A stretch of DNA of 64,000 bases from NCBI GenBank assembly GCA_947629405.1, contig CANRDL010000002.1, forward strand, positions 23,417 to 87,416, given 5' to 3'. The notes beneath the pieces are model-generated. The model was not told the origin of the DNA. It searched no databases and was given only the letters and a program-made list of their open reading frames with translations. The stretch is from an uncultured Bacilli bacterium (GTDB lineage Bacteria; Bacillota_I; Bacilli_A; RF39; UBA660). The translations under genes were made by a program, and so were the position numbers. Shown here in pieces: positions 8,029-54,471 of this stretch (positions are counted from its first letter, which is position 1; each line of letters opens with the position of its first letter).

Positions 8029-8029
8029 C

Positions 8030-21327: not shown

Positions 21328-21460
21328 ATAATTAAAATAAAAATTAAAAAATAGGAAGAATATTATTATTTTGATAATATTCTTTTTTTTATTAAAACAA
21401 TTCACAATTATACTTTAAATTCATAAATTATAAATGAGAATACATGAAAGGGGAAATATT

Positions 21461-35493: not shown

Positions 35494-36222
35494 ATGAAAA
35501 TAATAAAATATTTAACTTTATTTATAATTAGTTTTCTATTTTTAAGTTTATCTCCTAAAGCTATAACTGACAACTGTTCTGATAAAGAAGATATAGAACT
35601 TTCAAGAGCGGCTAGTCAAATTAAAACGGGTTATACTTATAAAGAAATTCAGGACGAAAGAATGATCAACGGGGTGTCAGTTGAATTTACAATTAATGTT
35701 TACAATATGAGCGATTTGCTTTATTTAGAAGTTTATGGAATCCCTGGAACACCTAAAACTACCTATACAACAAATAATGCTGTAAATGGCATAATTAATA
35801 TTCCTAATCTTTCATCATATACTCAAAATACTTATACTTTAATGTTTAAATCAAAAAATAGTAATTGTTTAGATAAAGTAATTTTAAATAAACAAATAGT
35901 TACACCAAAATACAATGAATATTCTCAAAGCTCAGAATGTGCTGATTATCCTAAATTTTCATTATGTCAAAAATTTTATAATACCAATGTCACTTATGAA
36001 GAATTCTCTGATAAATTAGATTCATATATTGAAAGTTTAGAAGAAATAAAAACTTCAAGTTCTAAAGAAAATAAAAAGGATGAAAAAAATATAAAAGAAC
36101 AATTAGTTCAAATTTATAAAAGCAACAAAAAAAATCTTCTATATACAGGATTATCCATTATCGTAATAGCATTAATTACTGGTATAGTAATTATGATTAG
36201 AAAGAGAATGAAAATAAAATAA
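35494..36222 (+). CDS. family-A protein 1: secreted 4-Cys domain with C-terminal TM anchor (no known family)
   Basis: Signal peptide. Conserved Cys pattern and the block VTPKYNEY...ECADYPKFSLCQKFYNTNVTYEEF shared with ORFs 40386 and 41178. K/E linker, C-terminal TM and an RKRMKIK tail. Confidence 0.6.
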   Translation: MKIIKYLTLFIISFLFLSLSPKAITDNCSDKEDIELSRAASQIKTGYTYKEIQDERMINGVSVEFTINVYNMSDLLYLEVYGIPGTPKTTYTTNNAVNGIINIPNLSSYTQNTYTLMFKSKNSNCLDKVILNKQIVTPKYNEYSQSSECADYPKFSLCQKFYNTNVTYEEFSDKLDSYIESLEEIKTSSSKENKKDEKNIKEQLVQIYKSNKKNLLYTGLSIIVIALITGIVIMIRKRMKIK

Positions 36223-40385: not shown

Positions 40386-41078
40386 GTGATTATTTTGAAA
40401 AAGTTTTTATTAATATTAATTTTTGGAATTTTTAGTTTTTTAAATATTAATACAATTAATGCGGAAGATTTTTGTAATGCCAATGATGTTAGAGTAGATT
40501 ATACTTACAGAGAAGATTTTAGTGTATTAAAAGATAATAAAAAACTAAAAGATAATGAAGTTTTTTTCCATTACTTTATTAATGTTAGTAATCTTAATGA
40601 TAAAAATTATATCATAGTAAAAAATGATTTTAATAAAAAAGAAAAAAAGATTACTTCCAGTTCATTTAAAAGTGGTACTGCTACTTATGAATGGACTAAA
40701 TTTAATAAGGAAGTAGAATTTACTATTGATGTATATTCAGAAGATGAAAATTGTTCCAAAACTAAATTAAAAACTTTAACATTAAAAACTCCTAAATTAA
40801 ATAAATATTATCTGGATGATCAGTGTCGAGAAATTCCTGATTTTGAAATGTGTCAGCCCTTTTATGAGACCGATATCGATTATTCTGATTTTTATGAAAA
40901 TGTAAATATTTATCGTAAGCAACATAAAATGAAGCCCGTTTCAGAATTCGATATGACTATAAGAGGAAAAATATTAGATTTTTTAAAAAATAATATTTGT
41001 AGTACAACTATAACTATAGTATTATTTATAGGTGTTATTGCTATTATAATTAATAAAAATAAAAGAAATAATAAATAA
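40386..41078 (+). CDS. family-A protein 2
   Basis: Same architecture as A1. Block KTPKLNKYY...QCREIPDFEMCQPFYETDIDYSDF. C-terminal TM plus NKNKRNNK tail. The start may instead be the TTG at 40395. Confidence 0.6.
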   Translation: MIILKKFLLILIFGIFSFLNINTINAEDFCNANDVRVDYTYREDFSVLKDNKKLKDNEVFFHYFINVSNLNDKNYIIVKNDFNKKEKKITSSSFKSGTATYEWTKFNKEVEFTIDVYSEDENCSKTKLKTLTLKTPKLNKYYLDDQCREIPDFEMCQPFYETDIDYSDFYENVNIYRKQHKMKPVSEFDMTIRGKILDFLKNNICSTTITIVLFIGVIAIIINKNKRNNK

Positions 41079-41177: not shown

Positions 41178-41945
41178 ATGAAAAAAGTCAAGATGTTTTC
41201 GTTGTTTTGCATATGTTTTATGCTCGGCGTATTAAGTATTAATGCTGCTGAATGCTCTGATAAAACTGTTGCTAAAAATGTAAAAGCAAAGTATGAATTA
41301 AAAAATGAGACAGACGAAAATTATGATCCATGTCCAGGGAAAGAATGTAGTCAGTCGGATTGGACAGTAGCACCACCTAAAGGTTATTATTATAATTTGA
41401 TTGTTAATAATTTAACTGATGATATGTATGTAGAAATTAGTAATGATTATAATGATAATTTTGATGCTGAAGAAGGTCAAACTACATATCCTGAAAAGGA
41501 TGTTATAAATGCCGACAAGTTTCAAAATGGTACTTTAACATATGAATCATTAAGAGTGTTTTACAGCGTAAATTATACAATTAATATTTATTCAAAAAGT
41601 AATTCTTGTTTATTAAAAACTATAAAACTTAAAACACCACTTGTTAACGAATATGTAAGTACAAAAAGTGATATATGTGCTAAAATACCAGATTTTGAGT
41701 ATTGCCAGGAATGGGTAGATGAAAGCATATCTGAAGATGACTTTTATAAAAAAGCCAAAGATTATGCCAATAAAAATAATGTTAACATCAAAAATGAAAT
41801 TCCTGATGAATATAAGGAAAAAGAACAAAAACAAGATAATAAAAGCAAAATAAATAATATTAAATTAATTTTAATATCAATTGTAATTTTATTAGCGATT
41901 ATAACTATAGTTACAGGAGTTATTGTTAGGGGGAAAAGAAAATGA
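41178..41945 (+). CDS. family-A protein 3
   Basis: Block KTPLVNEYV...ICAKIPDFEYCQEWVDESISEDDF. C-terminal TM plus RGKRK tail. Its stop overlaps the B2 start (ATGA). Confidence 0.6.
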   Translation: MKKVKMFSLFCICFMLGVLSINAAECSDKTVAKNVKAKYELKNETDENYDPCPGKECSQSDWTVAPPKGYYYNLIVNNLTDDMYVEISNDYNDNFDAEEGQTTYPEKDVINADKFQNGTLTYESLRVFYSVNYTINIYSKSNSCLLKTIKLKTPLVNEYVSTKSDICAKIPDFEYCQEWVDESISEDDFYKKAKDYANKNNVNIKNEIPDEYKEKEQKQDNKSKINNIKLILISIVILLAIITIVTGVIVRGKRK

Positions 41946-44863
41946 AAAAAAATAAAACATTAAAATTGTTATTACTAGTAATATTTAGTTTATTTATAAC
42001 AGTAAATGTTAAAGCTAGTATAAATATTTCTTATACTTCCGATTCAAGTATGTGGCATTGGGCAACATCCAATAATGGAACTGGAATTTTTGTTTCATCT
42101 CCAGAATATGCAACATTCGAAGGTAAAAATATTCAAATGTATTGTATATCTCCAATGAGAAATGATGATAGCGCCGTAAATGTAAAAAGTATAAAAAAAT
42201 CTAATGATTGTAGCAACAAAAATAGTTTTGAATGTTCAATGATTTGGGTACTAAAAAGTGAAAGTACATGGCAGACTAAATTGTTAGCAGCTCGTCTAGT
42301 TGCTAAAAAATATGGTAAGCTAGATACCGATGGTATTTGGAATCATGGCAATTATAATATTTATGAGTGCTCATTAAAAAGAATTGAAGGAAAATCTTCT
42401 TGTACTCCATATTGGACTGGTGGATACTATAATGCTGCTGTAGATTTATATAAAAATGCAACTAATAAATCTAATTTAGGCAAACTTTCCGATATGAAAA
42501 ATTTATATACATTATATTATGCTTACCCAGTTAATGGTTCAAGTTATCAGAAATATTATTTCATAACAACAAAAGAAAGAAAACAATGTAAAGATTATAA
42601 AAATAATGATTATGATGGTTATACTTATAATAAAAACAAAGCGGATACATTTATTGGAACTGATCCTAAAAAAGCTGATATTATAAATAAATGTTTTAAA
42701 AAGGCTGAAAAAAATAGTTGTAAATCTTATAAAAAACAATATAAAAATGAGTGGCCAAATTATAAATATAATTCAAATAGTGATGATAAAAAAGTTTCTA
42801 AGGGCAAAAATGAAACTATTAAACAAGCTGTAAAAAGAACATGCTTTATTCACAAAGTTTGTGCTGATTATAAAAATACAAAATATGCAGGATATGAATA
42901 TGATCCTTCTAAAGCAAATACAGAAGTAAATCAAGCAAATGTTAAAAAAACATGTTTTAAAAAGACAAATGATTGTGATTACTTAAAAGAACAATGTGAT
43001 AAAGGTGATGGAACTGCTTGTAATGAATATACTAAAAAAGCATGTAAAACTACCGATAAATGTAATATATCAGAAGCTGATATAAAAGCTGGTGTAGTTG
43101 TTAAGAATGCTAAAACTGGTGAAAAATTTGATGCAACTACTTGGGGATTATTAGAAAAATATGGTACTGAAGCCCAAAAAGAAGCATATACAACATATTG
43201 TCCTTGTGATTGTTCAAGCCCAGCTAGTGCAATTAACAGTGGAGCTTGTAATTTAAAATCAGGTGGAACATGGAATGAAACAACTTATAAAGATGTAAAT
43301 GATAAGGATGCCTATAATGCTGCTTGCCCACCATGTAATTTTAGTACAAACAAACCAACTTGCGCTAATGAAACAGATTGTTATAAATCTAATGAAGGTT
43401 TTTATAATGTTGATTTAAGTCAACTACAATTATCTGCTTGTGCATCTTATGATCAAAAAGACAAACTTCAAGATAAAGCCTATAAAGATGCAGGACTTGA
43501 AGCAGTATGTTATGAAACATATCAAATAACATATAAAGAAGGTGTAGTTGATACAGGTATTAATACTACTTTAGGAGTAACTAAATATTTAAAATTTGAA
43601 AATAGTACAGATGGAAAAATTGATAATAGAATTAAAATTAAAACTAATAAAATTTGTACAGTAAATGGAACTGAAGAGGCTGTAAAAACTGCTATTAGTA
43701 GTGGTAAAGATAATGACGATTATTATGCTGCTGCTCCATCATTAGGATTTACTTATGATGAAAAAATTAATAATCAAGGATTCTGGAATACAATGAATAC
43801 GGATTCAAGTATTTCTGAACCTGTCGCAGTTAGTGGCGTAACTGATTCTTATCAAACTACAGCTACTAAAACATATATTTATACTCCTGCTACAACATAT
43901 TATGTAGGAATAACAAATGCTCAATTCTATGCTCTTGCAAATGATAGTAAAGATAATGGAACATTATTTAGCGATTTAGTAGTAAAATCATATAATGATG
44001 CTTCTGATGCTGATAAAAAGAATATTAAAATGATTGGTAAAGATGGTCATATATTCCCAATTAAATTTTCAACTAAAGCTCAAAAAGTATATTATAATGA
44101 GGCAGATAATAAATATTATTTAGAAGATGAATATAAAAATCTAGCTGGGTATAATTACTCCATAACAGTAGATGATTATAATTTTGATGAATCATCTATA
44201 AATAAATCATTTACTAATCCAGAATGTAATAACTCTTATAGTTGTCGATATGTGATTAGTAAAAAAGATTGTAAAAACTCAACAAGTACTTGTTCATATG
44301 TATGTACAAAAGAAGTTGAAGAAAGTCAAAAAGCATCTAGTGCTTACTGTAGTGAAGTTTGTACTTGTATAGAAAATGGAACTACTGTTGAAAAAAGTAC
44401 AACACCTATATCAAGTTCTGGTTTAAACTTTGTATACACAAATATTACAACTGATACAATATTAGATACAGAAACAACTACTGCTATTGGTGAAAACTGG
44501 GATAATCAAAAAGGCTTAGATACTAAAAAAGCTATTGAAGAAGTATCACAAGCTGGTAAAACTTTTGATGATGATAATGCTATTTATACAATTACTCTTG
44601 ACTCAGATACAATTAAAGAAATAAAAGATAGTATAGAAAAAAATAAATCTTATGTAAATTTAGAAGGTATTAATTGTGATCAATTAGTTACTAAAGGTTA
44701 TGATACAGCTAGTAATAGTCCTACTGTTGTGTCTGAAGATGCTAATCTATATTATTGTACAAGTGAATTTATCAGAAATAATATTACTGATGAACAAAAG
44801 AAAAAATTAGAAGATTCATATGTAGCATATGCTAATGAAAAAAGTTATTCAATATGGAAATAA
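41942..44863 (+). CDS. family-B giant Cys-rich secreted protein 2 (973 aa)
   Basis: Sec signal ...VNVKA/S. Three tandem modules of about 40-47 aa of type C(K/A)(D/S)YK...CF(K/I)(K/H). C-terminal two-thirds collinear with B1 (ACPPC, TGINTTLG, DYYAAAPSLGF, DGHIFPIKFST, Cys knot, AIGENW...FDDDNAIYTITLD, terminal YSIWK). Confidence 0.6.
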   Translation: MKKNKTLKLLLLVIFSLFITVNVKASINISYTSDSSMWHWATSNNGTGIFVSSPEYATFEGKNIQMYCISPMRNDDSAVNVKSIKKSNDCSNKNSFECSMIWVLKSESTWQTKLLAARLVAKKYGKLDTDGIWNHGNYNIYECSLKRIEGKSSCTPYWTGGYYNAAVDLYKNATNKSNLGKLSDMKNLYTLYYAYPVNGSSYQKYYFITTKERKQCKDYKNNDYDGYTYNKNKADTFIGTDPKKADIINKCFKKAEKNSCKSYKKQYKNEWPNYKYNSNSDDKKVSKGKNETIKQAVKRTCFIHKVCADYKNTKYAGYEYDPSKANTEVNQANVKKTCFKKTNDCDYLKEQCDKGDGTACNEYTKKACKTTDKCNISEADIKAGVVVKNAKTGEKFDATTWGLLEKYGTEAQKEAYTTYCPCDCSSPASAINSGACNLKSGGTWNETTYKDVNDKDAYNAACPPCNFSTNKPTCANETDCYKSNEGFYNVDLSQLQLSACASYDQKDKLQDKAYKDAGLEAVCYETYQITYKEGVVDTGINTTLGVTKYLKFENSTDGKIDNRIKIKTNKICTVNGTEEAVKTAISSGKDNDDYYAAAPSLGFTYDEKINNQGFWNTMNTDSSISEPVAVSGVTDSYQTTATKTYIYTPATTYYVGITNAQFYALANDSKDNGTLFSDLVVKSYNDASDADKKNIKMIGKDGHIFPIKFSTKAQKVYYNEADNKYYLEDEYKNLAGYNYSITVDDYNFDESSINKSFTNPECNNSYSCRYVISKKDCKNSTSTCSYVCTKEVEESQKASSAYCSEVCTCIENGTTVEKSTTPISSSGLNFVYTNITTDTILDTETTTAIGENWDNQKGLDTKKAIEEVSQAGKTFDDDNAIYTITLDSDTIKEIKDSIEKNKSYVNLEGINCDQLVTKGYDTASNSPTVVSEDANLYYCTSEFIRNNITDEQKKKLEDSYVAYANEKSYSIWK

Positions 44864-44879: not shown

Positions 44880-45296
44880 ATGAAAGAAAGTTATTGGGGC
44901 TATTGGTTAATATTATTAGGAATTTTAGTTGTAGTTATATTAATGCTTGTTCAAAGTTATACAACTACTAATACTCAAGATTATTACTTAATTAAAGAAA
45001 CTACTGAAGCAGCTATGGCTGATGCAGTTGATTATAGTTATTATAAAAACTATGATGAACTAAGAATTAATAAAGAAGTATTCATGGAAAGCTTTATTAA
45101 AAGATTTGCTGAAAATGCATCATTATCAAAAGATTATACAATATCTTTCTATGATATTTATGAAGCTCCACCTAAGGTTAGTGTAAAGGTTACTAGTAAA
45201 TCTAAATCATTTACTATTAACGGTGATGAAAATTCTTTAGATTCAGTTAATAAGTTATCATCAGTTTTACAAATTAATATGAAAAATAGATCATAA
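44880..45296 (+). CDS. pseudopilin-like protein (TadE/F-like N-terminus)
   Basis: MKESYWG followed by a hydrophobic helix (YWLILLGILVVVILMLV). Leader type shared with ORFs 52442 and 52960. Begins 16 nt after B2. Confidence 0.45.
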   Translation: MKESYWGYWLILLGILVVVILMLVQSYTTTNTQDYYLIKETTEAAMADAVDYSYYKNYDELRINKEVFMESFIKRFAENASLSKDYTISFYDIYEAPPKVSVKVTSKSKSFTINGDENSLDSVNKLSSVLQINMKNRS

Positions 45297-45315
45297 TAAA
45301 AAAAGGAGGATAAAG

Positions 45316-46209
45316 ATGGGTGTTGCAATTAAGAGATTTTTAAGCAATAAAAACACCGTTACAATTATAGGTGTAATATTAGGAATAGTTGTATTATATA
45401 TTGGTTACACTTGGCGTGTAAATAATGCTTTAGAATTAGTTTCTGTTCCTGTTGCAAAAGAAGAAATTGCTTCTCGTACGAAAATAACCGAAGATATGTT
45501 GACTTATATCAAATTACCTAGAAATTCTATCGAATCATTAGATAATTTGGAAACTTCAGCTAGTAATATTGTTGGTAAATATGTATCTTTTGGTACGAGT
45601 ATTGCAAAAAATAGTATGTTTTACACATCATATTTAATTAGTAAAAGTGAAATGCCAGATTCAGCTTTTGCCAATATCCCTGATGGATATACAATATTTA
45701 GTCTAGACGTTACTCAACATTCTACATACGGAAATTCAATTTATCCAGATAATTATATTGATTTGTATTTAAAAGCTACTGATGATTCAGGAAAAGTTAT
45801 TTTTGGAAAATTAATTTCTAGTATTAAAGTTTTAGCAGTAAAAGATAGTAATGGTAATCATGTATTTGAAACAACTGTTGAAACTAGAACCCCAGCTGAA
45901 TTACTATTTGCTGTAACTGATGATATGTTCTTGCTATTAAAGAAAGCAGAATATATTGGTTGTGAAATTTCTCCAGTACCAAGAAATGCTTCCTATAGTG
46001 CCGATCCAGGCGAAACTAGTGTAGCTAATGATTACCTAAGAGATTTCATCTTATCAAAAGCAGCAACTATACCTGATTCAGAAATTACAACGACAGAAGA
46101 TTCTGTAAATGAAGCAGAAGATGAAGATACAACCGAAATTACTAGTTCTAAAAAGACAAGTAGTACTAAAAAAACAAGTAGTACAAAAAAGGCAAGTAGC
46201 AGCGAATAA
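45316..46209 (+). CDS. cpaB: CpaB/RcpC-like Flp pilus assembly protein (SAF-type domain) with Ser/Thr/Lys repeat tail
   Basis: N-terminal TM then LVSVPVAKEEIASRTKITEDMLTYIKLP, typical of the CpaB N-terminal domain. The tail is SSKKTSSTKKTSSTKKASSSE. Confidence 0.5.
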   Translation: MGVAIKRFLSNKNTVTIIGVILGIVVLYIGYTWRVNNALELVSVPVAKEEIASRTKITEDMLTYIKLPRNSIESLDNLETSASNIVGKYVSFGTSIAKNSMFYTSYLISKSEMPDSAFANIPDGYTIFSLDVTQHSTYGNSIYPDNYIDLYLKATDDSGKVIFGKLISSIKVLAVKDSNGNHVFETTVETRTPAELLFAVTDDMFLLLKKAEYIGCEISPVPRNASYSADPGETSVANDYLRDFILSKAATIPDSEITTTEDSVNEAEDEDTTEITSSKKTSSTKKTSSTKKASSSE

Positions 46210-46236
46210 TAAAAAAGGATAAAAAGGGATGATATA

Positions 46237-47448
46237 ATGAACGAAGCAATATTTTCACAAATAGATTTTGGCCCTTTAAAGGAGTACCTAGAAGAAGACA
46301 ATATTACCGATATTTCTTATGATAATGGTGGACAACTTTGGCTTAAAACTTTGGATAAAGGAATTTATCGAATTGAAAATCCAGCTATTAATAATGCTTT
46401 AATAGAAAAAATAGCATTCCAATGTTCAAATGTTATGGGAAAAACATTTAATATGGCTGAACCATTTTTGGATGCTGAAAGTACAGAGCTTCGTTTAAAT
46501 TTTATTCATGAATCAATTGCTACTAATGGAATTGCGATGGTTATTCGTAAAACTCCTGCCAAGATTAGATTAAATAGAGAAAAATTACTTGATGAGCAAT
46601 ATGTTACAAAAGATTTATTAGATTTTTTAATAAAATGTGTCCATGCGCGATGCAATATTATAGTTAGTGGTGAAACTGGTTCAGGTAAAACAGAACTTGT
46701 TAAATATTTGGCCTCAAATACTATGGAAAATGAAAAAATCATTACTATTGAGGATACTTTGGAATTACACTTAGATCGTATATTTCCTCATAGAGACATA
46801 GTTGCTATGAAAACTAATAATATTGCTTCATATACTGATGTTTTAGTTACCTGCATGAGACAGAATCCCATATGGATATTATTGTCTGAGGTTCGTTCAG
46901 CTGAAGCTGTATTAGCAGTTCGTAACTCAATATCATCTGGACATCATATTTTATCAACAATCCATGCTGATAAAGCATCATCAATTCCCATGCGTATGTA
47001 CTCACTTCTTGAAAGTAGTCAAGATGTTGATCAATTTTTAGCATCAATTCATAGATATGTTCAAATTGGTATATATGTAAAAGGTTATTTTTCTAAAGAA
47101 CTAAATAGATTTCAAAGAGAGATTATTGAAGTTTGTGAATTTTATGTTGATGATGATAATAAACCTAAAAGTAATATAATTTATAAAAAGACTTTAGATG
47201 GAAAAATTAGTTTAAATAATCCAACTAAGCATTTATTAGATTACTTTAGTATTTCTAATGTAGAAATAGACGAAGATACTTTCCATCTTGGAACAAATGA
47301 AGCTAATAATGAAAGTACAGAAGAAAATGTAAATCAAGAAAATAGTGTTTCAGAAACTGTTACTGAACCTTTAAAAAATAATACTACAGTTCAAGATTCA
47401 GCAGATTTACTAAATTCTTTAAGATTAAATAATATTGAAACATTGTAA
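46237..47448 (+). CDS. tadA: TadA/CpaF-family secretion ATPase
   Basis: Walker A IIVSGETGSGKTE, ITIEDTLEL, RQNPIWILLSEVR, His-box LSTIHA. Followed by two T2SS-F-type membrane proteins. Confidence 0.85.
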   Translation: MNEAIFSQIDFGPLKEYLEEDNITDISYDNGGQLWLKTLDKGIYRIENPAINNALIEKIAFQCSNVMGKTFNMAEPFLDAESTELRLNFIHESIATNGIAMVIRKTPAKIRLNREKLLDEQYVTKDLLDFLIKCVHARCNIIVSGETGSGKTELVKYLASNTMENEKIITIEDTLELHLDRIFPHRDIVAMKTNNIASYTDVLVTCMRQNPIWILLSEVRSAEAVLAVRNSISSGHHILSTIHADKASSIPMRMYSLLESSQDVDQFLASIHRYVQIGIYVKGYFSKELNRFQREIIEVCEFYVDDDNKPKSNIIYKKTLDGKISLNNPTKHLLDYFSISNVEIDEDTFHLGTNEANNESTEENVNQENSVSETVTEPLKNNTTVQDSADLLNSLRLNNIETL

Positions 47449-47475
47449 TAAAAATTAGAAAGTGGGTGAATATTT

Positions 47476-48369
47476 GTGGTATTAATTATTTTATTAATAA
47501 TTGCAGCTTTTGTAATTACCTATAGAACTAATACAGGTGAAAAAACATCTAAGTTTTTTATAGAAAAAATTACACAAGCTTATAACAAATATGCCCCAGG
47601 AAGATTTAAAGAAGTAAGAGAAAAAGCAAAAGAACTTGGTCAAGAATATACCCCACGTCAATATTTAACTCAAGTAGTTATTTTGGGTGTATTTTTTGGT
47701 GGAGTTGCTTTTTTATATTTTTGGAATTTAATTATTGCCATTATTTATGCTGTAGCAGCTATTTCTTTTGTACCATATCTAGCTTTACTTCGATGCAAAA
47801 GAGTTTACAGTGAATATATTTTTGAACAAATTCAAGTATATACAACAAACACTATAATGGAATTTAATACTACTCAGTCTTTTGTAAAATCATTAGAAGG
47901 AGTAAGAGATTCTGGAATTATAGAAGAACCTGTATTAAGTGATTTAAAAAAGATGATAGACTTATCTTATGAAAATGGTACAATTGAAGAATCTATAGAA
48001 TACTTTAATCAAAGATATCCATTTTATATGGTAAAAAATATGCATCAATTATTTTTACAAATTACTAATGAAGGTGCTAAAGATTCTGGAGAATCTTTAG
48101 AAAATATGTCTATGGACATTGACACACTTGTTGAAGGTGTTTATCGTGATAGAATGGACAGAAAAAATTTCCATAAAAGATTTTTAACTTTTGGTTTTGT
48201 ATTATTTTTCCTAGTTGTTGCTATGCAACTATTATTAGGTCATGATTCATATATAGAAATTGCTAAATTGTGGTATGTTAATTTATTACTTCATGCCATA
48301 ATTATCGCTAATTGTTACTTCCTTTTAAAAGGTGAGAAGTATTATAATGAAGATGTGGGGGCTGAATAA
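47476..48369 (+). CDS. tadB: TadB-like platform protein (T2SS-F domain)
   Basis: GTG start. N-terminal TM, central cytoplasmic helical domain and C-terminal TMs. Position after tadA. Confidence 0.6.
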   Translation: MVLIILLIIAAFVITYRTNTGEKTSKFFIEKITQAYNKYAPGRFKEVREKAKELGQEYTPRQYLTQVVILGVFFGGVAFLYFWNLIIAIIYAVAAISFVPYLALLRCKRVYSEYIFEQIQVYTTNTIMEFNTTQSFVKSLEGVRDSGIIEEPVLSDLKKMIDLSYENGTIEESIEYFNQRYPFYMVKNMHQLFLQITNEGAKDSGESLENMSMDIDTLVEGVYRDRMDRKNFHKRFLTFGFVLFFLVVAMQLLLGHDSYIEIAKLWYVNLLLHAIIIANCYFLLKGEKYYNEDVGAE

Positions 48370-48371
48370 TT

Positions 48372-49160
48372 ATGTATATAGAAATAATATTTTTAGGCAT
48401 TGCCATATTCTTTATAATGAATTATACAGGACGAATTAGTACTAATAAATTTATTGAAGAAAATAATGACATTTTTGAAAAATTAAAAGAAGATGACTTT
48501 GACTTTTATGTTCATGCTAAATATGGTCCAGAAAGAGATCCAGATGTTTTATTTAAAAAAAGAATGAAAAATGCTATATTAACTTTCTTTGTGGTTTTAA
48601 TTTTCTTTATCGCTAGCTTAGATTATATTAAATTTTTGTTAGCAATAGGTATAGCATTTGGTGTATTTAAAATGGATTATATTCAACTTAAATCCTATTA
48701 TAAAGGAAGATTACATGAAATAGATTTATTACTACCTTATTATTTAAAGAACTTAGAAATCTTAATTCAACACTATACCGTTCCCGTTGCTATAGGAAAA
48801 TCAATTGAAACAGCTCCAGCTATATTTAAAGAAGGTTTACAAAAAATGATTAGTGAAATTAATGCTGGGGATCAAAGTATTGAGCCTTATATGCAATTTG
48901 CTAGAGATTATCCGGTAAGAGATTCCATGCGTATGATGAGACTTTTATATCGTTTATCTTTAGGTCGTCAAGAAAGAAAACAAGAACAATTATTAGCATT
49001 TTCTAAAACTATTTCTAACTTACAACAAAAAGCTAGAGAAACTAAATATAAAGAAAGACTAGAAAGAATGGAAAAAAAGACAATGCAAATGTTAGTAATT
49101 ACCGGTGTTGGCTTAATGATCTTGCTAGTTGTATCTTTATTGATGATGTTTAGTAAATAA
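48372..49160 (+). CDS. tadC: TadC-like platform protein (T2SS-F domain)
   Basis: Same topology as the preceding ORF. LLPYYLKNLEILIQHYTVPVAIGKSIETAP...EINAGDQSIEPYMQFARDYP resembles the T2SS-F repeat. Confidence 0.6.
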   Translation: MYIEIIFLGIAIFFIMNYTGRISTNKFIEENNDIFEKLKEDDFDFYVHAKYGPERDPDVLFKKRMKNAILTFFVVLIFFIASLDYIKFLLAIGIAFGVFKMDYIQLKSYYKGRLHEIDLLLPYYLKNLEILIQHYTVPVAIGKSIETAPAIFKEGLQKMISEINAGDQSIEPYMQFARDYPVRDSMRMMRLLYRLSLGRQERKQEQLLAFSKTISNLQQKARETKYKERLERMEKKTMQMLVITGVGLMILLVVSLLMMFSK

Positions 49161-49187
49161 TCTTATAAATAAATATTTAAAAATATT

Positions 49188-49213
49188 AGCTAGTAACGAA
49201 ATACTAGCTTTTT
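49188..49213 (+). terminator. rho-independent terminator after tadC
   Basis: agctagta-acgaaa-tactagct 8-bp stem plus TTTTT. Confidence 0.65.
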
Positions 49214-49275
49214 ATATAGCAAGTTAACCTTTGTTTTGTTATAATATTTATATAAGTAAAATAGAGGTGAAATAA

Positions 49276-51816
49276 ATGATAAAAAATAAAAAAAATATTA
49301 TATATTATATTTTATCTTTTATTATACCTTTAATAATCTTTTCTTATATTTGCTATGTCGCTAAAATTTATCCTTTTGGAGATATATTAATAAATAAATA
49401 CGACTCATTTGGGCAGTATACATCTTTTTTAATAGAATTAATTTCTAAATTAAAAATGGGTGGTAACTTTTTTTATACTTTACATGCTGGATGTGGTTCT
49501 AATTTTTTAGGAATTTTTAACTTGTATGCGTCAAGTCCTTTAAATTTGTTGTTTATCTTTTTTAAGAGTAATCAAGTTTACAGTTTTTATGTTTTACTGA
49601 TATATCTTAAAATGGGATTAAGTGGTTTGAGTTTATTTTTATATTTAAAAAATGTAAATAAAAAGAACTTAAATGTTTCTTTAATCTTTTCAACTATATA
49701 TGCTTTATCATCTTTTTCGATTGTTTATTGTTATCACATTATGTGGAGTGATGCATTTTATATGGTCCCATTAATCCTTTTAGGGATTGATAAGTTAGTT
49801 GATAATGATAAAATTCTATTGTATACAATTTGTTTATCAATTATGATATTAATAAACTTTTATATGGCATATATGATATGTATATTTTGTGTCATCTATT
49901 TTATATATAAGATTGTCAATAAAAAAGAAAATAAATTATCAACCATTTTAAAATTTTTATTAGCATCTTTAATCAGTGGTTTAGTTGGGGCGGTTGTTTT
50001 AATACCATCCGGTTTTGCAATTTTGAGTGGTAGAAGTTTTGGTGATGAAAATTATTTAGCCCTTAACTTAAAAAATTTAGAAGCCTTTTTCTATAATCTT
50101 ACACCAGCCAGTTTTTTAAAAACAGATAATTATAATGATGGTACATGTGTTATTGGCTGTACAATGTTTATAATTGCTTTAGTAGCAATGTATTTCTTTA
50201 ATAAAAAATTTTCTTTAAAGCAAAAAATAACAGTTGGAGCCATAATTTTATTTTTCTTTATCTCATTTTCCTTTAATGCTGTTGATTTTGCTTGGAATAT
50301 GTTTGCAAGGCCAGTATGGTGGAATTCAAGGTATGCTTATTTATTTAGTTTATTTTTAATAATTATTGCTTATAATTCATTTATTAATATTAAAGATTTA
50401 AAAATGAAAAACTTTTTTAAACTATTATTAATTTTAGTATTTTTTGTCCTTATATTAACTAGCATGTCCCTAAAACTAAAAGGTAGTGGTCCAAGTAATT
50501 TAAAATTCATTATTACAATGCTATCGATAATTTATTTGGGAGTTTATCTTTATTTAATTTCAACATTAGGTAACAAGAATAAGCAATTATTAAAAATATT
50601 AATTATTTTATTTATGATTTTAACGGAAATTACTTATAATGGCTATTACCTTTTAACTGAAGATAAAGATAATAATAATTACTATAAAGATACAGTTGAA
50701 ACATTAAATCGGAAAGTAAATTATGTTAATAAAATAAAAAAATTAGATAGTAGCTTTTATCGAATTTATGATTTTAATGATGGACAAGAAAACAATGGCA
50801 TGATTATGAATTTTAACTCGCCGCAAGTTTTTTCTTCCGTTTATAATAAAAATATAAATGAATTTTATTCAAAATATTTAGAAGTAAATGATAATTTAGA
50901 TGAAACTGTAAATCACACTAAAATATCTTATCCATCATTAGAATTATTGTCTTTAATAAATGTAAAATATATTATTGATACTAATAGCAATTATTATTAT
51001 CAAATAGAAGATGAAATTTTAAAAAATAATTATGCTCTTCCCTTTGGCTTTTTAATAGAAAATAATAAATCAATAAATTTAACTGATTATTCTAAGTTTG
51101 AAAATACAGAAAAAATATATTCTTATCTTGCTAATAAAAAAACATATATTTATCATGATGTTGATGAAAGTATAACCTATAATAATGTTTCTACTAATAA
51201 AGATGGTACTCTAAAATTACAAGATCAAGATAAAAAAGGAGAAATTATCTATGACTTTATAGTTGATACAGAGGGAATATTATCACCAAGAATATCAGAG
51301 AATTTGCATAGAATTTCTACAATTTATGTAAATGATGCAATTGTTAATAAAGATGATTTAATATATCTTAAAAAAGGTGATAAAGTTAGTATTAATTATT
51401 CATTTGATAAAGCATCACAAATAAATGGTAAAACTTTTAATGATTTGCAAGTAAATATACTTGATATTTCTAAATTTAAAGATGTTATAAATAAAATTTC
51501 CCGAAATGAAGTAAAGTTTAGTGAAAATAAAGAAGATATATTGAGTGCTAATGTTATAGTTAAAGAAGATAATAAAAAATTATTTATGTCATTACCTTAT
51601 GATGATGGTCTGATTATAAAAGTTGATAATAAAAAAAACAAAGTAAATAAAGAATTTAATACTTTTATTTCTATAAATTTAACTAAGGGAAAACATAAAA
51701 TTAAAATTAATTATCTACCAAAAGGTTTTAAATTAGGTTTAATTATATCTTTAACTACTATTTTTAGTTCCATAATATTATTTATAATTAAAAAGTTTAC
51801 AAACTTTTGTAAATAA
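49276..51816 (+). CDS. YfhO-family polytopic membrane protein (putative glycosyltransferase/glycopolymer-modifying)
   Basis: 846 aa, many TM helices, N-terminal YPFGDILINKYDSFGQYTSF and a large C-terminal extracytoplasmic domain ending in a TM. Size and layout match YfhO. Confidence 0.65.
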   Translation: MIKNKKNIIYYILSFIIPLIIFSYICYVAKIYPFGDILINKYDSFGQYTSFLIELISKLKMGGNFFYTLHAGCGSNFLGIFNLYASSPLNLLFIFFKSNQVYSFYVLLIYLKMGLSGLSLFLYLKNVNKKNLNVSLIFSTIYALSSFSIVYCYHIMWSDAFYMVPLILLGIDKLVDNDKILLYTICLSIMILINFYMAYMICIFCVIYFIYKIVNKKENKLSTILKFLLASLISGLVGAVVLIPSGFAILSGRSFGDENYLALNLKNLEAFFYNLTPASFLKTDNYNDGTCVIGCTMFIIALVAMYFFNKKFSLKQKITVGAIILFFFISFSFNAVDFAWNMFARPVWWNSRYAYLFSLFLIIIAYNSFINIKDLKMKNFFKLLLILVFFVLILTSMSLKLKGSGPSNLKFIITMLSIIYLGVYLYLISTLGNKNKQLLKILIILFMILTEITYNGYYLLTEDKDNNNYYKDTVETLNRKVNYVNKIKKLDSSFYRIYDFNDGQENNGMIMNFNSPQVFSSVYNKNINEFYSKYLEVNDNLDETVNHTKISYPSLELLSLINVKYIIDTNSNYYYQIEDEILKNNYALPFGFLIENNKSINLTDYSKFENTEKIYSYLANKKTYIYHDVDESITYNNVSTNKDGTLKLQDQDKKGEIIYDFIVDTEGILSPRISENLHRISTIYVNDAIVNKDDLIYLKKGDKVSINYSFDKASQINGKTFNDLQVNILDISKFKDVINKISRNEVKFSENKEDILSANVIVKEDNKKLFMSLPYDDGLIIKVDNKKNKVNKEFNTFISINLTKGKHKIKINYLPKGFKLGLIISLTTIFSSIILFIIKKFTNFCK

Positions 51817-51838
51817 CTTTATAAAAAAACCAAAATTA

Positions 51839-51867
51839 TTGATAAAACAAAAAAATCTAGGTATAAT
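51839..51867 (+). promoter_or_regulatory. near-consensus sigma-A promoter of the pilin genes
   Basis: TTGATA (51839-51844), 17 nt, TATAAT (51862-51867). Confidence 0.6.
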
Positions 51868-51899
51868 AAATATGTATATAATAAGGAGGAATGTATTAA

Positions 51900-52121
51900 A
51901 TGAAAGAGGCGACTGGAGAATTAAATATGACAGTAATTACTGTTGTTGCAATAGCTGCAATAGCGGCAATATTCTATGCTTTTGTTTGGCCAGCAATCAA
52001 AACAAGTTTAGCTGAAAATACTTGTTCTACAAAATGTCCTAATGAAAGTAGTGGAATGTCTTGTTTTGATGCTTGTATGAGTTCTGCAAATAATTCTCAA
52101 GCAAATAATAAAATAGGATAG
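51900..52121 (+). CDS. Flp-like small pilin 1 (non-canonical leader)
   Basis: 73 aa. MKEATG/ELNMTVITVVAIAAIAAIFYAFVW hydrophobic helix. C-terminal region has four Cys. Strong RBS AAGGAGG. Confidence 0.55.
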   Translation: MKEATGELNMTVITVVAIAAIAAIFYAFVWPAIKTSLAENTCSTKCPNESSGMSCFDACMSSANNSQANNKIG

Positions 52122-52163
52122 TAGATTAAGCAAAAATCTTTAAAAAATAGGAGGCCATAATAT

Positions 52164-52433
52164 ATGAAAGAAGCAACTGGTGAATTAAATATGACAGTAA
52201 TTGTCGTTATTGCCATAGCTGCTATGGCTTCTTTTTTCTTTGGCTTTTTTTGGCCTAGTATAAAAAATAGTTTTGATAGTGATACTGCTTGTAATAAAGC
52301 AAATTGTGAGTATGGTGAAAATGGTAATAATGTTAAAGATGGTTATTATATTTCTTGTTCATATACTTCATCAAAATCTGGTGAAGAACCAAAAACTTAT
52401 GACTTAGATGGCAAATGCCCTTACAAAGGATAG
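52164..52433 (+). CDS. Flp-like small pilin 2 (paralogue)
   Basis: 89 aa. The first 13 residues are identical to pilin 1 (MKEATGELNMTVI), followed by a related hydrophobic helix. Divergent C-terminal region, also with four Cys. Confidence 0.55.
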   Translation: MKEATGELNMTVIVVIAIAAMASFFFGFFWPSIKNSFDSDTACNKANCEYGENGNNVKDGYYISCSYTSSKSGEEPKTYDLDGKCPYKG

Positions 52434-52441
52434 TGAAGTAA

Positions 52442-52942
52442 ATGAGAGAATCTTATGGAGCTGGATGGCTTACACAAATTGTAATTGTATTTATACTGCT
52501 TTTTGCAGCTATTATTTGTTATGCCATAAATTTCGGAAAAGCATTTAAAATAAAGAATCAAATTGTTGAAGATTTAGAATATTATGAAACACCGCGTGCT
52601 GCTAAATGTGCAATTAGTGATTATTTACAAGATGTCGGCTATCGAAAAATGTCCAATATAGACGAATTGCCAGCCGATGAAGATAAAGATAATTGTAAAG
52701 GGTATAATATTGATGGAAATGCATCTACAGATATGAAAGATAATGCTTACTATTTTATTTGCCAACATCATAGTAATGTAAATAATGCTGATATTCATAA
52801 AGTTTATTATAAAGTTTATGTATTCTGGGGCTTTGATTTACCTATTTTTGGGGATCTTTTAAATTTTGAAATGGCAGGGACAACTAAAAATTTACCATAT
52901 AGTGAAGATTGGAATACAGATACTACAACACCTTGTAGATAA
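52442..52942 (+). CDS. TadE/TadF-like pseudopilin 1
   Basis: MRESYGAGWLTQIVIVFILLFAAII N-terminus. About 166 aa. Paralogous to the next ORF (VYVFWGFDLPIFGDLLNFEMAG vs VVLFYDFNIPLISEVFNFKFKISG). Confidence 0.5.
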   Translation: MRESYGAGWLTQIVIVFILLFAAIICYAINFGKAFKIKNQIVEDLEYYETPRAAKCAISDYLQDVGYRKMSNIDELPADEDKDNCKGYNIDGNASTDMKDNAYYFICQHHSNVNNADIHKVYYKVYVFWGFDLPIFGDLLNFEMAGTTKNLPYSEDWNTDTTTPCR

Positions 52943-52959
52943 AAAGGAGAGTAGATTAA

Positions 52960-53463
52960 ATGAGAGAATCAATTGGTGGAGCATGGATTTATGCATTAGT
53001 ATTAGGTTTTGTATTATTATTTACTTCTTTTATATCTCTAGCAATTAGCTATAATAAAGTTTTTAAAGTTAAAAATGAAGTGTTATCTATTATTGAAAAA
53101 TATAATGGAGTTAATGAGAAAAACAAAGATATTATTTCTAACTATTTAAATACATCTGGATATAGCGCAGAAGGAATAAATGCTGACAAATGCAAAGATA
53201 TTGATGAAGACGAAGCTACAGAAATTAATCGAACAGGGTATAAATCTTATGGAGAAGTTGTTGGGGATGTTAAATTATCAGATGACAAAACAATGTGTAT
53301 AAAAAGAATTCAAAGAGAAAAAAATGTTTATATTTACGATGTAGTTTTATTCTATGATTTTAATATTCCTTTAATAAGTGAAGTTTTTAATTTTAAATTT
53401 AAAATTTCAGGACAATCTCAAGATATTTATTATCCTAATGATTTACCTAATTTAACTAAATAA
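52960..53463 (+). CDS. TadE/TadF-like pseudopilin 2
   Basis: MRESIGGAWIYALVLGFVLLFTSFI N-terminus. Paralogue of 52442-52942. Confidence 0.5.
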   Translation: MRESIGGAWIYALVLGFVLLFTSFISLAISYNKVFKVKNEVLSIIEKYNGVNEKNKDIISNYLNTSGYSAEGINADKCKDIDEDEATEINRTGYKSYGEVVGDVKLSDDKTMCIKRIQREKNVYIYDVVLFYDFNIPLISEVFNFKFKISGQSQDIYYPNDLPNLTK

Positions 53464-53487
53464 TCTTGATTTTTAAGGAGGATTAAT

Positions 53488-54471
53488 ATGAATGTTATAA
53501 TTGCTAATAAATATCAAAGTCAACTTGGTACTTTAGATATTGACGTAATAAAAAGTTTAAGTGGAGAATTCGAAGTAGAAGAAATAATATCTAATTTTAA
53601 GAATTTTTATTTTAATAAAATGATATTAGATATTACCGCTATTAAAAATTATAAAGATATAAATAATATTCAAAAATTATCTGTTGGTCTTGATATGTCT
53701 AAAATTATATTATTTTTAGACGAAGAAAATTCTTCGCCAGTATTTTTATCTCAATTAGTTTCAATGGGAATATATAATTTTACTAGAGATTTACCAAATA
53801 TTAAATATTTAATAAATAATCCTAATTCGTATAAAGATGTAGCCCAATTTCAAAAATTAGCTGAAAATGCTAATAACGATAATAATGATAATAATAGTCA
53901 GGCCAATCAAGGACCTATTAAAACTAGGATTATTGGTCTTAAAAATGTTACTGAAAATGCTGGATCTACAACTTTAACATATATTTTGAAAAAATATTTA
54001 GAAAAAGCTTATAAAGTAATGGCTATTGAAATGGATAAAAAAGATTTTTTACTTTTTAATGATCAAGAATTAGTATCAACTGATGAAGAAGATTTCCCTA
54101 CTACTATTATAAAAGGGAAAGATAGAGATGTTATTCTTATTGATTTAAATAATTCAGCAGAAATTAAAGATTGCGATGAAGTATTATATTTAGTTGAGCC
54201 TTCAATTATTAAATTAAATAAAATAATGAGAAAAAATAAAAATACTTTTACAGAGTTAAAGGGTAAAACAATAGTTTTAAATAAATCACTAATTAGTGAT
54301 AAAGATGTGAAAGAATTTGAATATGAAGCAAAATCTAAAGTATTTTTCAATATGCCGCCTTTGAATGATAAATCATTTGATAATCATGTTGTTGAGGACT
54401 TTTTAATTAAATTAGGATTTGATAGATTACAAACAGATGTAAAGCCTAAAAGATTTAAATGGTTTAAATAA
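53488..54471 (+). CDS. tadZ: TadZ/CpaE-like protein (receiver-like N-domain plus ParA/MinD-like domain with degenerate P-loop)
   Basis: RIIGLKNVTENAGSTTLTYILKKYLEKAYKVMAIEMD aligns with the MinD/CpaE layout, but the KGGxGKT lysines are missing. N-terminal 120 aa are receiver-like. Sits in the tad locus. Confidence 0.45.
   Translation: MNVIIANKYQSQLGTLDIDVIKSLSGEFEVEEIISNFKNFYFNKMILDITAIKNYKDINNIQKLSVGLDMSKIILFLDEENSSPVFLSQLVSMGIYNFTRDLPNIKYLINNPNSYKDVAQFQKLAENANNDNNDNNSQANQGPIKTRIIGLKNVTENAGSTTLTYILKKYLEKAYKVMAIEMDKKDFLLFNDQELVSTDEEDFPTTIIKGKDRDVILIDLNNSAEIKDCDEVLYLVEPSIIKLNKIMRKNKNTFTELKGKTIVLNKSLISDKDVKEFEYEAKSKVFFNMPPLNDKSFDNHVVEDFLIKLGFDRLQTDVKPKRFKWFK

Follow-up and report, generated by a model that had tools for sequence, protein, structure and literature searches.

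A putative Tad-derived filament module of uncultured gut Bacilli as the chromosomal counterpart of genes 36-40 in pLS20-type conjugation operons

We analyzed a 64-kb stretch of contig CANRDL010000002.1 from an uncultured low-GC gut Bacilli bacterium (the whole of this stretch is called the window below), in which an initial annotation had recognized a Tad/Flp-type pilus locus between positions 44880 and 54471. The G+C content is ~25% across the window, and all genes between 35.5 and 57 kb reside on the forward strand with short gaps between them (Table 1). The order and coordinates of the genes as first described agree with the positions of their open reading frames (ORFs). A protein of the DUF5411 family is followed by a CpaB-like protein, a secretion ATPase, and two polytopic membrane proteins resembling TadB and TadC, and then, beyond a gene for a YfhO membrane protein, by two small pilin-like proteins, two longer pilin-like paralogues of 166 and 167 aa, and a 327-aa cytoplasmic protein. 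The predicted parts of this module are thus CpaB, an ATPase of the TadA/CpaF-VirB11 family, a TadB/TadC-like platform, a degenerate ParA/TadZ-like protein, and five pilin-like subunits, which comprise two small major-pilin candidates, two candidates related to DUF4320, and one from DUF5411.

The locus was compared with 159 related loci, 80 of them from genomes and 79 from metagenomes, the latter reached via distant DUF5411 proteins. Individual loci are designated by L-numbers, with L081, L084, and L083 denoting the regions of plasmids pLS20, pXO2, and pHTbeta, respectively. For each family searched, homologues in gut metagenomes number over 7,000. Homologues of the ATPase exceed 7,500, with 73-100% identity among the 120 listed and 70-85% across thousands of proteins from metagenome-assembled genomes; for the 80 genome loci, ATPase identity is 69-82%. 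Among these 80 loci, a YfhO gene between the TadC-like and pilin genes occurs only in the window and in L022 (13292-15805), and in the window it is flanked by a terminator-like hairpin upstream and a promoter-like site downstream. Where other relatives retain the pilin genes in the vicinity, these usually lie directly 3′ of the TadC-like gene. The YfhO gene is a lineage-specific insertion, and the module is therefore one operon.

The closest relatives of this module reside in the conjugation operons of Firmicutes plasmids. When the ATPase was searched against 72,556 plasmids by tblastn, the top matches (28-34% identity, 143-169 bits) were encoded by Firmicutes conjugative plasmids, which include pLS20, Virgibacillus and Peribacillus plasmids, Listeria plasmids, pHTbeta, and pXO2. 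The pLS20-family genes labeled "VirB11," which are the best plasmid matches, score 143-159 bits, versus 90-94 bits for CpaF and 85-89 bits for VirB11. In the same search, proteobacterial CpaF proteins reached 86-94 bits, VirB11 proteins 66-89 bits, and TrbB proteins 67-77 bits. The window ATPase is 34% identical to the product of pLS20 gene 37, with which it shares a clade in a neighbor-joining (NJ) tree. Profile comparison with hhalign extends this correspondence to the surrounding genes: the DUF5411 protein matches the plasmid gene 36 family (95.3%, E 2.4e-8), the TadB-like protein matches gene 38 (43.6%, E 2.4e-4, 210 colinear columns), the TadC-like protein matches gene 39 (96.2%, E 2.4e-9), and the 166/167-aa paralogues match the DUF4320 protein of gene 40 (82%, E 1e-5). 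All off-diagonal controls between window and plasmid families remained below 3%. The reading of the locus as simply a Tad system has thereby been overtaken, as its nearest relatives are the gene 36-40 module of the pLS20 family rather than Tad loci. Judged by these comparisons, the module is the chromosomal counterpart of genes 36-40 in the conjugation operons of pLS20, pXO2, and pHTbeta.

The neighborhoods in the plasmids resemble one another. They comprise a large adhesin of the thioester or SpaA type, several small proteins, a ~125-aa N-terminally anchored protein (gene 36 in pLS20), the ATPase (gene 37), membrane proteins of ~270 and ~250 aa (genes 38 and 39), and a 120-aa DUF4320 protein (gene 40). 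They also include ~48-aa single-transmembrane (TM) proteins that start with MLDQNTDR, a TrbC/VirB2-family protein, and a VirD4 protein of the CD1115 type. The window is colinear with genes 34-41 as they occur in pLS20, pXO2, pHTbeta, and the Listeria and Virgibacillus plasmids, with a large surface protein followed by the DUF5411-type protein, the ATPase, the TadB-like and TadC-like proteins, and the DUF4320-type protein. Both also contain small single-TM proteins, and in both the module is linked to CD1115-type VirD4, VirB6, and VirB4. Compared with the pLS20 family, the window lineage has additional genes for CpaB (one or two) and for a ParA/TadZ-like protein, its pilins are larger and contain Cys, and its subunits start with M[KR]E[AS]xG rather than with the MLDQNTDR sequence, which has no Gly. 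Moreover, the window module is chromosomal and syntenic whereas that of the pLS20 family is plasmid-borne, and the large proteins encoded upstream in the window are not thioester or SpaA adhesins. In pLS20, genes 36 and 38-41 are listed as "unknown" and gene 37 as "putative VirB11" (PMC8557374), and we found no publication that describes a pLS20-type module as Tad-like.

The module nevertheless bears specific resemblances to Tad/Flp systems (type IVc; Caulobacter Cpa, Aggregatibacter Tad, and Clostridium botulinum pCLJ), with which it shares the order CpaB-ATPase-TadB-TadC, clear CpaB homology, remote but specific TadB and TadC homology, and a set of small subunits with hydrophobic N-termini. 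A profile of 101 CpaB-like homologues matches that of four canonical CpaB proteins (hhalign 97%, E 1e-10, 157 columns). The window protein scores 42.9 bits (E 3e-11) with TIGR03177, for which the cut-off is 71, and 25.7 bits with RcpC, likewise below the curated cut-off. When a hidden Markov model (HMM) of canonical CpaB was searched against the 7,569 ORFs of the 159 loci, its top 40 matches all belonged to the CpaB-like family. On these scores, the CpaB-like protein is a true CpaB homologue.

The two platform proteins were evaluated in the same manner. Of the top 40 matches to a canonical TadB HMM, 39 belong to the TadB-like family, the best of them scoring 17 bits (E 9e-4) over nearly the full length, and all of the top 40 matches to a canonical TadC HMM are members of the TadC-like family (best 23.8 bits, E 9e-6). 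Median scores separate the families: the TadB HMM gives 6.8 bits on TadB-like versus 0.2 bits on TadC-like proteins, and the TadC HMM gives 11.2 bits on TadC-like versus -0.2 bits on TadB-like proteins. No paralogy is detectable between the two families, and searches of all PDB sequences with either profile returned nothing. The HMM rankings argue for a homology to TadB and TadC that is real, remote, and specific to each orthologue. In the plasmids, pLS20 gene 38 (L081 9998-10798) and its pXO2 homologue (L084 8074-8904) give sub-threshold T2SSF matches (E 0.19 and 0.14), which span the whole 125-position domain and lie between TM segments. The "unknown" products of plasmid gene 38 would fit a TadB-like identity. 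Taken with the gene order, the profile evidence indicates that the Tad ancestry of the locus is real but remote.

The ATPase had been assigned to TadA/CpaF, which agrees with its PF00437 domain and with its best solved relative being CpaF (70.8 bits), ahead of archaeal GspE (61 bits), VirB11 (56 bits), and FlaI (55 bits); Walker B-like (LSEVR) and His-box-like (SGHHILSTIHA) motifs can be read by eye from the translation. The assignment is at odds with the NJ tree, in which the window ATPase lies outside the CpaF cluster of Tad/Flp systems. In this tree of 296 columns, it forms a clade with the Firmicutes plasmid ATPases, apart from CpaF/TadA, VirB11, and TrbB, and is roughly equidistant from CpaF, VirB11, and TrbB, the tree being unrooted and without support values. 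Among NCBIfam models, VirB11 (TIGR02788) is the best match at 112.9 bits against a cut-off of 249.95, followed by actinobacterial TadA and TrbB, all of them far below their cut-offs. In the 327-aa family, CbiA/MinD/ParA is, jointly with DUF5480, the most recurrent sub-threshold Pfam match (4 of 24 members each), and its E value of 0.0018 is the best of any family. The window protein carries a β-strand/P-loop/helix/"IEMD" pattern that aligns to TadZ, with AGSTT where GKTT would be expected. The hhalign match of the family to TadZ is 1.7%, and its profile has no match among all PDB sequences. These weak signals suggest that it is probably a degenerate P-loop protein of the MinD/ParA/TadZ type. 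The labels "TadZ-like" and, for the 166/167-aa paralogues, "TadE/F-like" in the initial annotation go back only to position and weak signals. Unlike in Tad/Flp loci, the TadZ-like gene lies at the end of the operon and its product lacks the Walker lysine; the coupling of the module to secretion genes described below also sets it apart from those systems.

A distinctive feature of the five pilin-like proteins is their shared N-terminus. Matches to the motif M[KR]E[AS]x{1,2}G number exactly five in the six frames of the 64-kb window, and each of them lies at residue 1 of a pilin-like ORF, directly before a hydrophobic helix. This placement, five out of five, is far beyond chance, and the short leader proposed at the outset is thereby confirmed for all five ORFs and found nowhere else in the window. 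All five share one feature of class III (type IV prepilin) signal peptides, a short leader that ends in Gly and precedes a hydrophobic helix of ~20 residues. Across the 159 loci, the small pilins read MKEA[TS]GELNMTV[VI]T[VI][VI]AIAA...F[VI]WP almost without variation, and in both the 80 genome and the 79 metagenome loci their ORFs start at the Met of this tag. The corresponding N-termini in relatives are M[RK]E[AS]IGG[TA]W for the 166/167-aa family and MKE[ST]xWGYW for DUF5411. In the latter family (607 cluster representatives at E ≤ 1e-3), alignments of 150 representatives nearly always begin at residue 1, with MKESxWG as the rule. A Gly at position 6 or 7 is present in almost all homologues shown; rare exceptions include L022:16767 and a few 166/167-aa paralogues.

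The tag is as conserved as the helix behind it. In ordinary prepilins, the conserved part is the mature N-terminus and not the leader. None of the five proteins has a Glu at +5 or matches N_methyl (PF07963/TIGR02532), whereas a prepilin encoded at 60032 in the window, which served as a control, does match. The Flp motif G/XXXXEY (PF04964) is absent from all pilin-like sequences, whose hhalign match to Flp is 0.2%, and a relation of the 166/167-aa paralogues to TadE/TadF (PF07811) finds no Pfam match and an hhalign value of 2.1%. The absence of the Flp motif and of Glu at +5 had been noted from the translations, and it held in the motif, Pfam, and hhalign tests; the alignment of the leaders with Flp and TadE models, which had been proposed, shows no fit to either family. 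Among sub-threshold Pfam matches of the small-protein families, archaeal Pilin_N is the most recurrent (6 of 43 members), with the 89-aa pilin-like protein 2 at E 0.0084. Two variants occur among the relatives: a pilin paralogue without the Gly in L022 (16767-16994; MKFYKINNELNMTV...) and a pilin in L013 (13157-13423; MNEATKNSGMTVATGQLNTTVV...) with a 9-residue extension and Gln rather than Glu after the Gly. They could be informative as to which residues of the tag matter.

The initial annotation had reported that no A24-type prepilin peptidase is encoded in the 64 kb, and further searches bear this out. There is no Pfam match to this family among all window ORFs of at least 100 aa, and a GxGDxK expression applied to six-frame translations of the window and the 80 genome loci did not reveal an A24 peptidase. 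An HMM trained on three TadV/CpaA proteins was searched against the six-frame ORFs of the window and of 94 loci, including the 80 relatives, five Firmicutes plasmid regions, and four canonical Tad loci. Only the three training sequences scored, with the next best match at E 0.08, and the same HMM found nothing at E ≤ 1e-3 in the 79 metagenome loci. The absence extends to all 159 related loci, which contrasts with the Firmicutes pCLJ locus, in which the Flp motif, the TadE motif, and TadV are all present. Because unlinked or shared peptidases are ordinary in type IV filament systems, where they are often encoded as loners and where all MSH loci are without one (PMC6668835), the missing gene carries little weight on its own. 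In addition, the textbook prepilin at 60032-61114 suggests that a peptidase of the PilD/ComC type is probably encoded elsewhere in the genome. This orphan gene sits between genes for a MacB-type ABC transporter and RNase R with no assembly genes nearby, and no homologue occurs within ±10 kb of any related locus.

The alternative posed by the initial annotation was between a divergent Tad subtype with a different processing rule and pilins that are not processed at all. The first half of this proposal, a divergent Tad subtype, is supported by the CpaB homology, the TadB and TadC HMMs, and the gene order. As to processing, cleavage of the leader is favored by the near-invariant Gly and by a PilD-type enzyme that is likely to be present; a tag that does not vary, a missing Glu at +5, and plasmid counterparts without the Gly speak against it. 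By our rough estimate, an unlinked peptidase of the PilD/ComC type that cuts behind the conserved Gly ranks first, as a tentative possibility. Retention of the tag, which is near-invariant, unlike ordinary leaders, comes a close second by an estimate that is just as rough, and processing by another protease appears improbable. A speculative candidate for such a protease, as an alternative means of processing MKEATG-type N-termini, is the CPBP/CAAX intramembrane protease encoded directly upstream of the cluster. Its gene is kept in this place in 33 of 80 loci, and a CPBP gene also lies upstream of the pHTbeta module (L083 592-1035). The two-TM Cys-containing d134 family, encoded just downstream of the module, was considered as a mini-peptidase on account of its GMIDLGK motif and rejected, as its members have just two TM helices and no A24 HMM signal.

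The second major property of the module, absent from the initial annotation, is its linkage to genes of a type IV secretion system (T4SS), which in the window include a VirB6/VirB4 block, with NCBIfam matches to Mbov_0396, pLS20_p028, and Mbov_0397, and a VirD4-type coupling protein. In seven relatives (L003, L006, L007, L043, L046, L064, and L065), the VirB6/VirB4 block lies directly 3′ of the module. The order in L043, for example, is the 327-aa gene, d134, the d134-domain protein, VirB6-like, VirB4a, VirB4b, and VirB4c. In five others (L021, L025, L029, L034, and L048), the VirD4 gene is found just downstream of the module. The module is thus genetically coupled to a VirB4/VirB6/VirD4 T4SS in uncultured low-GC gut Bacilli.

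VirB4 is encoded in the window by three consecutive, overlapping ORFs of 109, 187, and 594 aa that correspond to positions 2-96, 101-281, and 295-891 of Mbov_0397. The same three-way split occurs in L003, L006, L007, L043, L046, and L064, and this conservation argues for a conserved gene organization or programmed frameshifting rather than for decay into a pseudogene. In the distant relatives L113, L117, L123, L132, L133, L136, L140, and L157, an LtaS-type sulfatase and a 230-aa membrane protein are encoded directly 3′ of the module; in the window, this pair precedes the T4SS block. The two arrangements would fit an ancestral supercluster that was rearranged in the window genome. Adjoining the VirD4 gene is the gene for a 609-aa protein with three SpaA/prealbumin-fold domains, possibly a surface protein of the sortase type that is linked to the T4SS.

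From these observations we favor, with moderate confidence, the interpretation that the locus encodes a type IV filament module of Tad origin, strongly diverged and working together with a Gram-positive T4SS. A filament is suggested by the joint presence of the ATPase, the TadB/TadC-like platform, and CpaB, by the common N-terminal signal and ~20-residue helix of the five subunits, and by two of the five being small, duplicated, and equipped with a Cys pair. A role in cell contact is suggested by the operon context, the variable large secreted proteins encoded upstream, and the analogy with the IncI thin pilus. In the proposed mechanism, the ATPase, docked on the TadB/TadC-like platform, would pull the pilin-like proteins out of the membrane through their N-terminal helices, with M[KR]E[AS]x(x)G as the recognition signal of the subunits. 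Polymerized by the ATPase, these proteins would form a short pilus or pseudopilus across the cell wall, one that presents or supports the large variable secreted proteins. Such a structure could bring cells into contact for the T4SS, as the type IV thin pilus does in the IncI system.

The analogy is one of arrangement. The IncI (R64) thin pilus and the conjugative type IV pilus of PAPI-1 are likewise filament machines encoded beside a T4SS, and they promote mating, especially in liquid (PMC12857230). Unlike the window module, they belong to the T4b pili of diderms, and they have canonical prepilins along with a peptidase of their own (PilU in R64), and they have no sequence relationship to the window proteins beyond the superfamily.

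Several observations weigh against the interpretation of the locus as a filament module allied to a T4SS. No filament has been seen. Gram-positive T4SSs have been stated to "not develop pili" in a study of the pLS20 adhesin (PMC8092201), and a 2025 review describes Gram-positive conjugation systems as having no pili and as ones that "universally lack VirB11 homologs" (PMC12857230). None of the five window proteins or 43 family members examined has a Pfam match to Flp_Fap, TadE, or N_methyl, even at E ≤ 1, and neither platform protein of the window has a Pfam match to T2SSF. Comparison of the window families by hhalign with canonical TadB, TadC, TadZ, TadE, and Flp, each a four-sequence alignment, gave at most 2.4%, with TadB versus TadC, the positive control, at 97.7%. 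Alone, these low scores would reject a link to Tad; the hmmsearch ranking reversed that verdict for TadB and TadC and left it in place for TadZ, TadE, and Flp. AlphaFold2 models of the platform proteins were poor, with pLDDT values of 60 (TadB-like) and 67 (TadC-like) and values below 50 in the putative T2SSF region, and Foldseek found no match at E < 1 for either model in the PDB; as the underlying alignments consisted of close homologues, this fold test is uninformative rather than negative. Homology between the small pilins and the plasmid MLDQNTDR proteins of 48-58 aa was not significant, a WP/FP motif alone falling into register. The T4SS genes of the window lie 18-26 kb from the module, with the genes distributed over three blocks. 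Finally, no Pfam relaxase or integrase family was seen among the ORFs of the window, which sets it apart from the self-transmissible elements of the pLS20 family, and the T4SS may therefore not be conjugative.

A number of features would suit a stand-alone adhesive pilus of the Tad/Flp type, with a role in colonization of host or mucus as in Bifidobacterium, an unlinked TadV or PilD, and no functional tie to the T4SS, which is in essence what the initial annotation proposed. The genes for CpaB, the ATPase, and the TadB-like and TadC-like proteins follow the Tad order, large variable secreted proteins are encoded upstream, and the canonical prepilin of the window implies that an A24 enzyme exists. 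Housekeeping genes separate the module from the T4SS genes in the window, and it is LtaS rather than T4SS genes that follow the module in many distant relatives. We consider this explanation unlikely, as the nearest relatives by every component are modules within conjugation operons, about a dozen relatives have the module in direct adjacency to VirB6/VirB4 or VirD4, and the locus shows neither a Flp nor a TadE signature and no TadV in 159 loci.

The locus might instead encode no filament machine at all, the ATPase being an energizer of the T4SS of the VirB11 type and the membrane and small anchored proteins being unprocessed parts of its channel or of a wall-spanning structure. Such an assignment would agree with VirB11 being the best NCBIfam match of the ATPase (112.9 bits), with the name given to pLS20 gene 37 (PMC8557374), with the lack of a Gly at the putative cleavage site of the small MLDQNTDR plasmid proteins, with a tag that is itself invariant, unlike cleaved leaders, and with the absence of a nearby peptidase. 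We judge it to be quite improbable: the VirB11 score is far under the cut-off of 250, CpaB and specific TadB/TadC homology are not expected of a VirB-type channel, and five paralogous proteins with one N-terminal signal and a ~20-residue helix are the hallmark of pilin sets. A competence-type pseudopilus for DNA uptake with a domesticated T4SS, as in the ComB system of H. pylori, is highly improbable, since VirD4 is present, a protein typical of export that ComB-type uptake systems lack (PMC12857230), and neither ComEA nor ComEC was seen by Pfam among the window ORFs, even if the missing relaxase and integrase, the chromosomal, syntenic, and lineage-wide conserved locus, and the reported use of Tad pili for transformation in some Actinobacteria (PMC8467076) would suit it.

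Returning to the Tad-derived filament module, a broader and more specific proposal is that this lineage of gut Bacilli and, by homology, the pLS20, pXO2, and pHTbeta plasmids build a Tad-derived T4SS pilus from subunits with an invariant 6-7-residue tag that is kept or is removed by means other than an A24 enzyme of the locus. We regard this proposal as possible but doubtful. If true, it would contradict the view that Gram-positive T4SSs have neither pili nor an ATPase of the VirB11/TadA type, and the demonstration of a filament would revise the accepted picture of Gram-positive conjugation. The plasmids pHTbeta and pAW63, the latter likewise a member of the pLS20 family, are known for efficient mating in liquid. 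Efficient liquid mating has been reported for pLS20 (PMC8092201), and for plasmids such as this one it is only partly explained, by adhesins. Considered as one Tad-derived module, pLS20 genes 36-40 and the chromosomal locus would provide a testable candidate for a Gram-positive mating pilus, with pLS20 in B. subtilis as a genetically tractable model. The same reading would assign a class of function to DUF5411, DUF4320, and several families of "hypothetical proteins," and would add a pilin N-terminal signal outside the Flp, TadE, and N_methyl rules.

Operons that combine DUF5411 with a CpaF-type ATPase and a platform protein have been predicted, with function unknown, by a language-model approach in the Clostridia Roseburia, Ruminococcus, and Eubacterium (Miller et al., 2022; PMC9523054). 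By their description, these operons differ from the window in having a recognizable PilC/GspF and an internalin-like protein, and no link to a T4SS or to pLS20 was drawn. A metagenome scan aimed at such Clostridia systems returned just further low-GC relatives (24-34% GC).

Table 1. Features of the 64-kb window, in order of position
Feature	Position	Strand	Basis or remarks
Spo0A	2235-3005		E 3e-42
LtaS-type sulfatase and 230-aa membrane protein	6004-8686		
T4SS block	9282-18576	+	d134-domain protein, VirB6-like, VirB4 (three ORFs), SpoIID-domain hydrolase, two membrane proteins
d134-domain protein	9282-10145	+	d134 family
VirB6-like protein	10177-12279	+	NCBIfam
VirB4, three ORFs	12298-14939	+	Mbov_0397 (335 bits)
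SpoIID-domain wall hydrolase	14958-16868	+	Pfam
CotZ-like protein	21434-21901		
SpaA-fold protein, 609 aa	23927-25756	-	
VirD4-type coupling protein, CD1115 family	26006-28294	+	NF045973 293.5 bits (cut-off 250); Pfam T4SS-DNA_transf
CPBP/CAAX intramembrane protease	34683-35396	-	
Secreted ~240-aa protein	35494-36222	+	Sec-type N-terminus; paralogues at 40386-41078 and 41178-41945
Two large secreted Cys-rich proteins	36332-40303 (1323 aa), 41942-44863 (973 aa)	+	Signal peptides; no Pfam match
DUF5411 pilin-like protein, 138 aa	44880-45296	+	Pfam DUF5411 E 7e-56; MKESYWG, then TM helix
CpaB/RcpC homologue, 297 aa	45316-46209	+	C-terminus SSKKTSSTKKTSSTKKASSSE, Ser/Lys/Thr-rich tail
CpaF/VirB11-family secretion ATPase, 403 aa	46237-47448	+	PF00437 (T2SSE) 95.8 bits; Walker A SGETGSGKTE
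TadB-like polytopic platform protein	47476-48369	+	Canonical TadB HMM ranking; homologue of pLS20 gene 38
TadC-like polytopic platform protein	48372-49160	+	Canonical TadC HMM ranking; homologue of pLS20 gene 39
Terminator-like hairpin, 3′ of TadC-like gene	49188-49209	+	Window sequence
YfhO membrane protein	49276-51816	+	PF09586 E 6e-149; operon insertion, outside machine
Promoter-like site (good), 5′ of first small pilin gene	51839-51867		Window sequence
Pilin-like protein 1, 73 aa	51900-52121	+	MKEATGELN, ~22-residue hydrophobic helix, WP, small Cys-containing head
Pilin-like protein 2, 89 aa	52164-52433	+	N-terminus as pilin-like protein 1; conserved Cys pair
Minor-pilin-like paralogues, 166 and 167 aa	52442-52942, 52960-53463	+	MRES[YI]G[AG], then TM helix; DUF4320-related
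327-aa cytoplasmic protein	53488-54471	+	Probably degenerate MinD/ParA/TadZ-type P-loop protein; no above-threshold Pfam match
Two-TM Cys-containing protein, 134 aa (d134 family), and membrane-anchored 392-aa protein	54531-56177	+	Downstream conservation
Canonical type IV prepilin, 360 aa	60032-61114	+	MNKQEG/FTLIEM; PF07963 E 6e-6; TIGR02532 above cut-off; not part of machine

The genes on either side of the module differ in their degree of conservation. Downstream, the 134-aa gene (54531-54935) is kept in 40 of 80 loci and the 392-aa gene in 10 of 80. The former belongs to d134, an expanded two-TM family with extracellular cysteines and the conserved cytoplasmic loop GMIDLGKAVxASKDDEIKKA, of which there are several paralogues per locus. 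One paralogue lies at 9282-10145 of the window, and in part of the family the two-TM unit is joined to a domain of ~300-400 aa. The d134 proteins have no family assignment. An identity of the family as a VirB2/TrbC pilin was not supported (hhalign 1.8%).

Upstream of the module, genes of the ~240-aa secreted family are present in 53-54 of the 80 related loci and have no match in Pfam or NCBIfam; in the window, two of these small paralogues sit between the 1323-aa and 973-aa secreted proteins. The large Cys-rich proteins vary among relatives, being conserved in just 1-3 of 80 loci, and are candidate adhesins. In pLS20, pXO2, pHTbeta, and the Listeria plasmids, a thioester- or SpaA-type adhesin occupies their position, which is a positional analogy and not a homology. 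Farther upstream, the synteny of the genes for CotZ, FtsW, a metallophosphoesterase, and the CAAX protease is conserved in 11-33 loci. Given these conserved chromosomal flanks and with no integrase or relaxase seen, the cluster looks chromosomal and vertically inherited, and the same features argue against its being a currently mobile integrative and conjugative element.

The initial annotation had described the organism as a monoderm sporeformer, a reasonable deduction from the window, which encodes Spo0A, a SpoIID domain, a CotZ-like protein, and a SpoVE/FtsW-family protein. The organism is thus reasonably taken to be a monoderm and probably spore-forming. Related metagenome-assembled genomes are labeled Bacilli, Tenericutes, Erysipelotrichaceae, "Mycoplasma sp. 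CAG:956," or "Firmicutes bacterium CAG:582," and the occurrence of sporulation genes in a lineage carrying Tenericutes and Mycoplasma labels suggests a relative of the Mollicutes that forms endospores or once formed spores.

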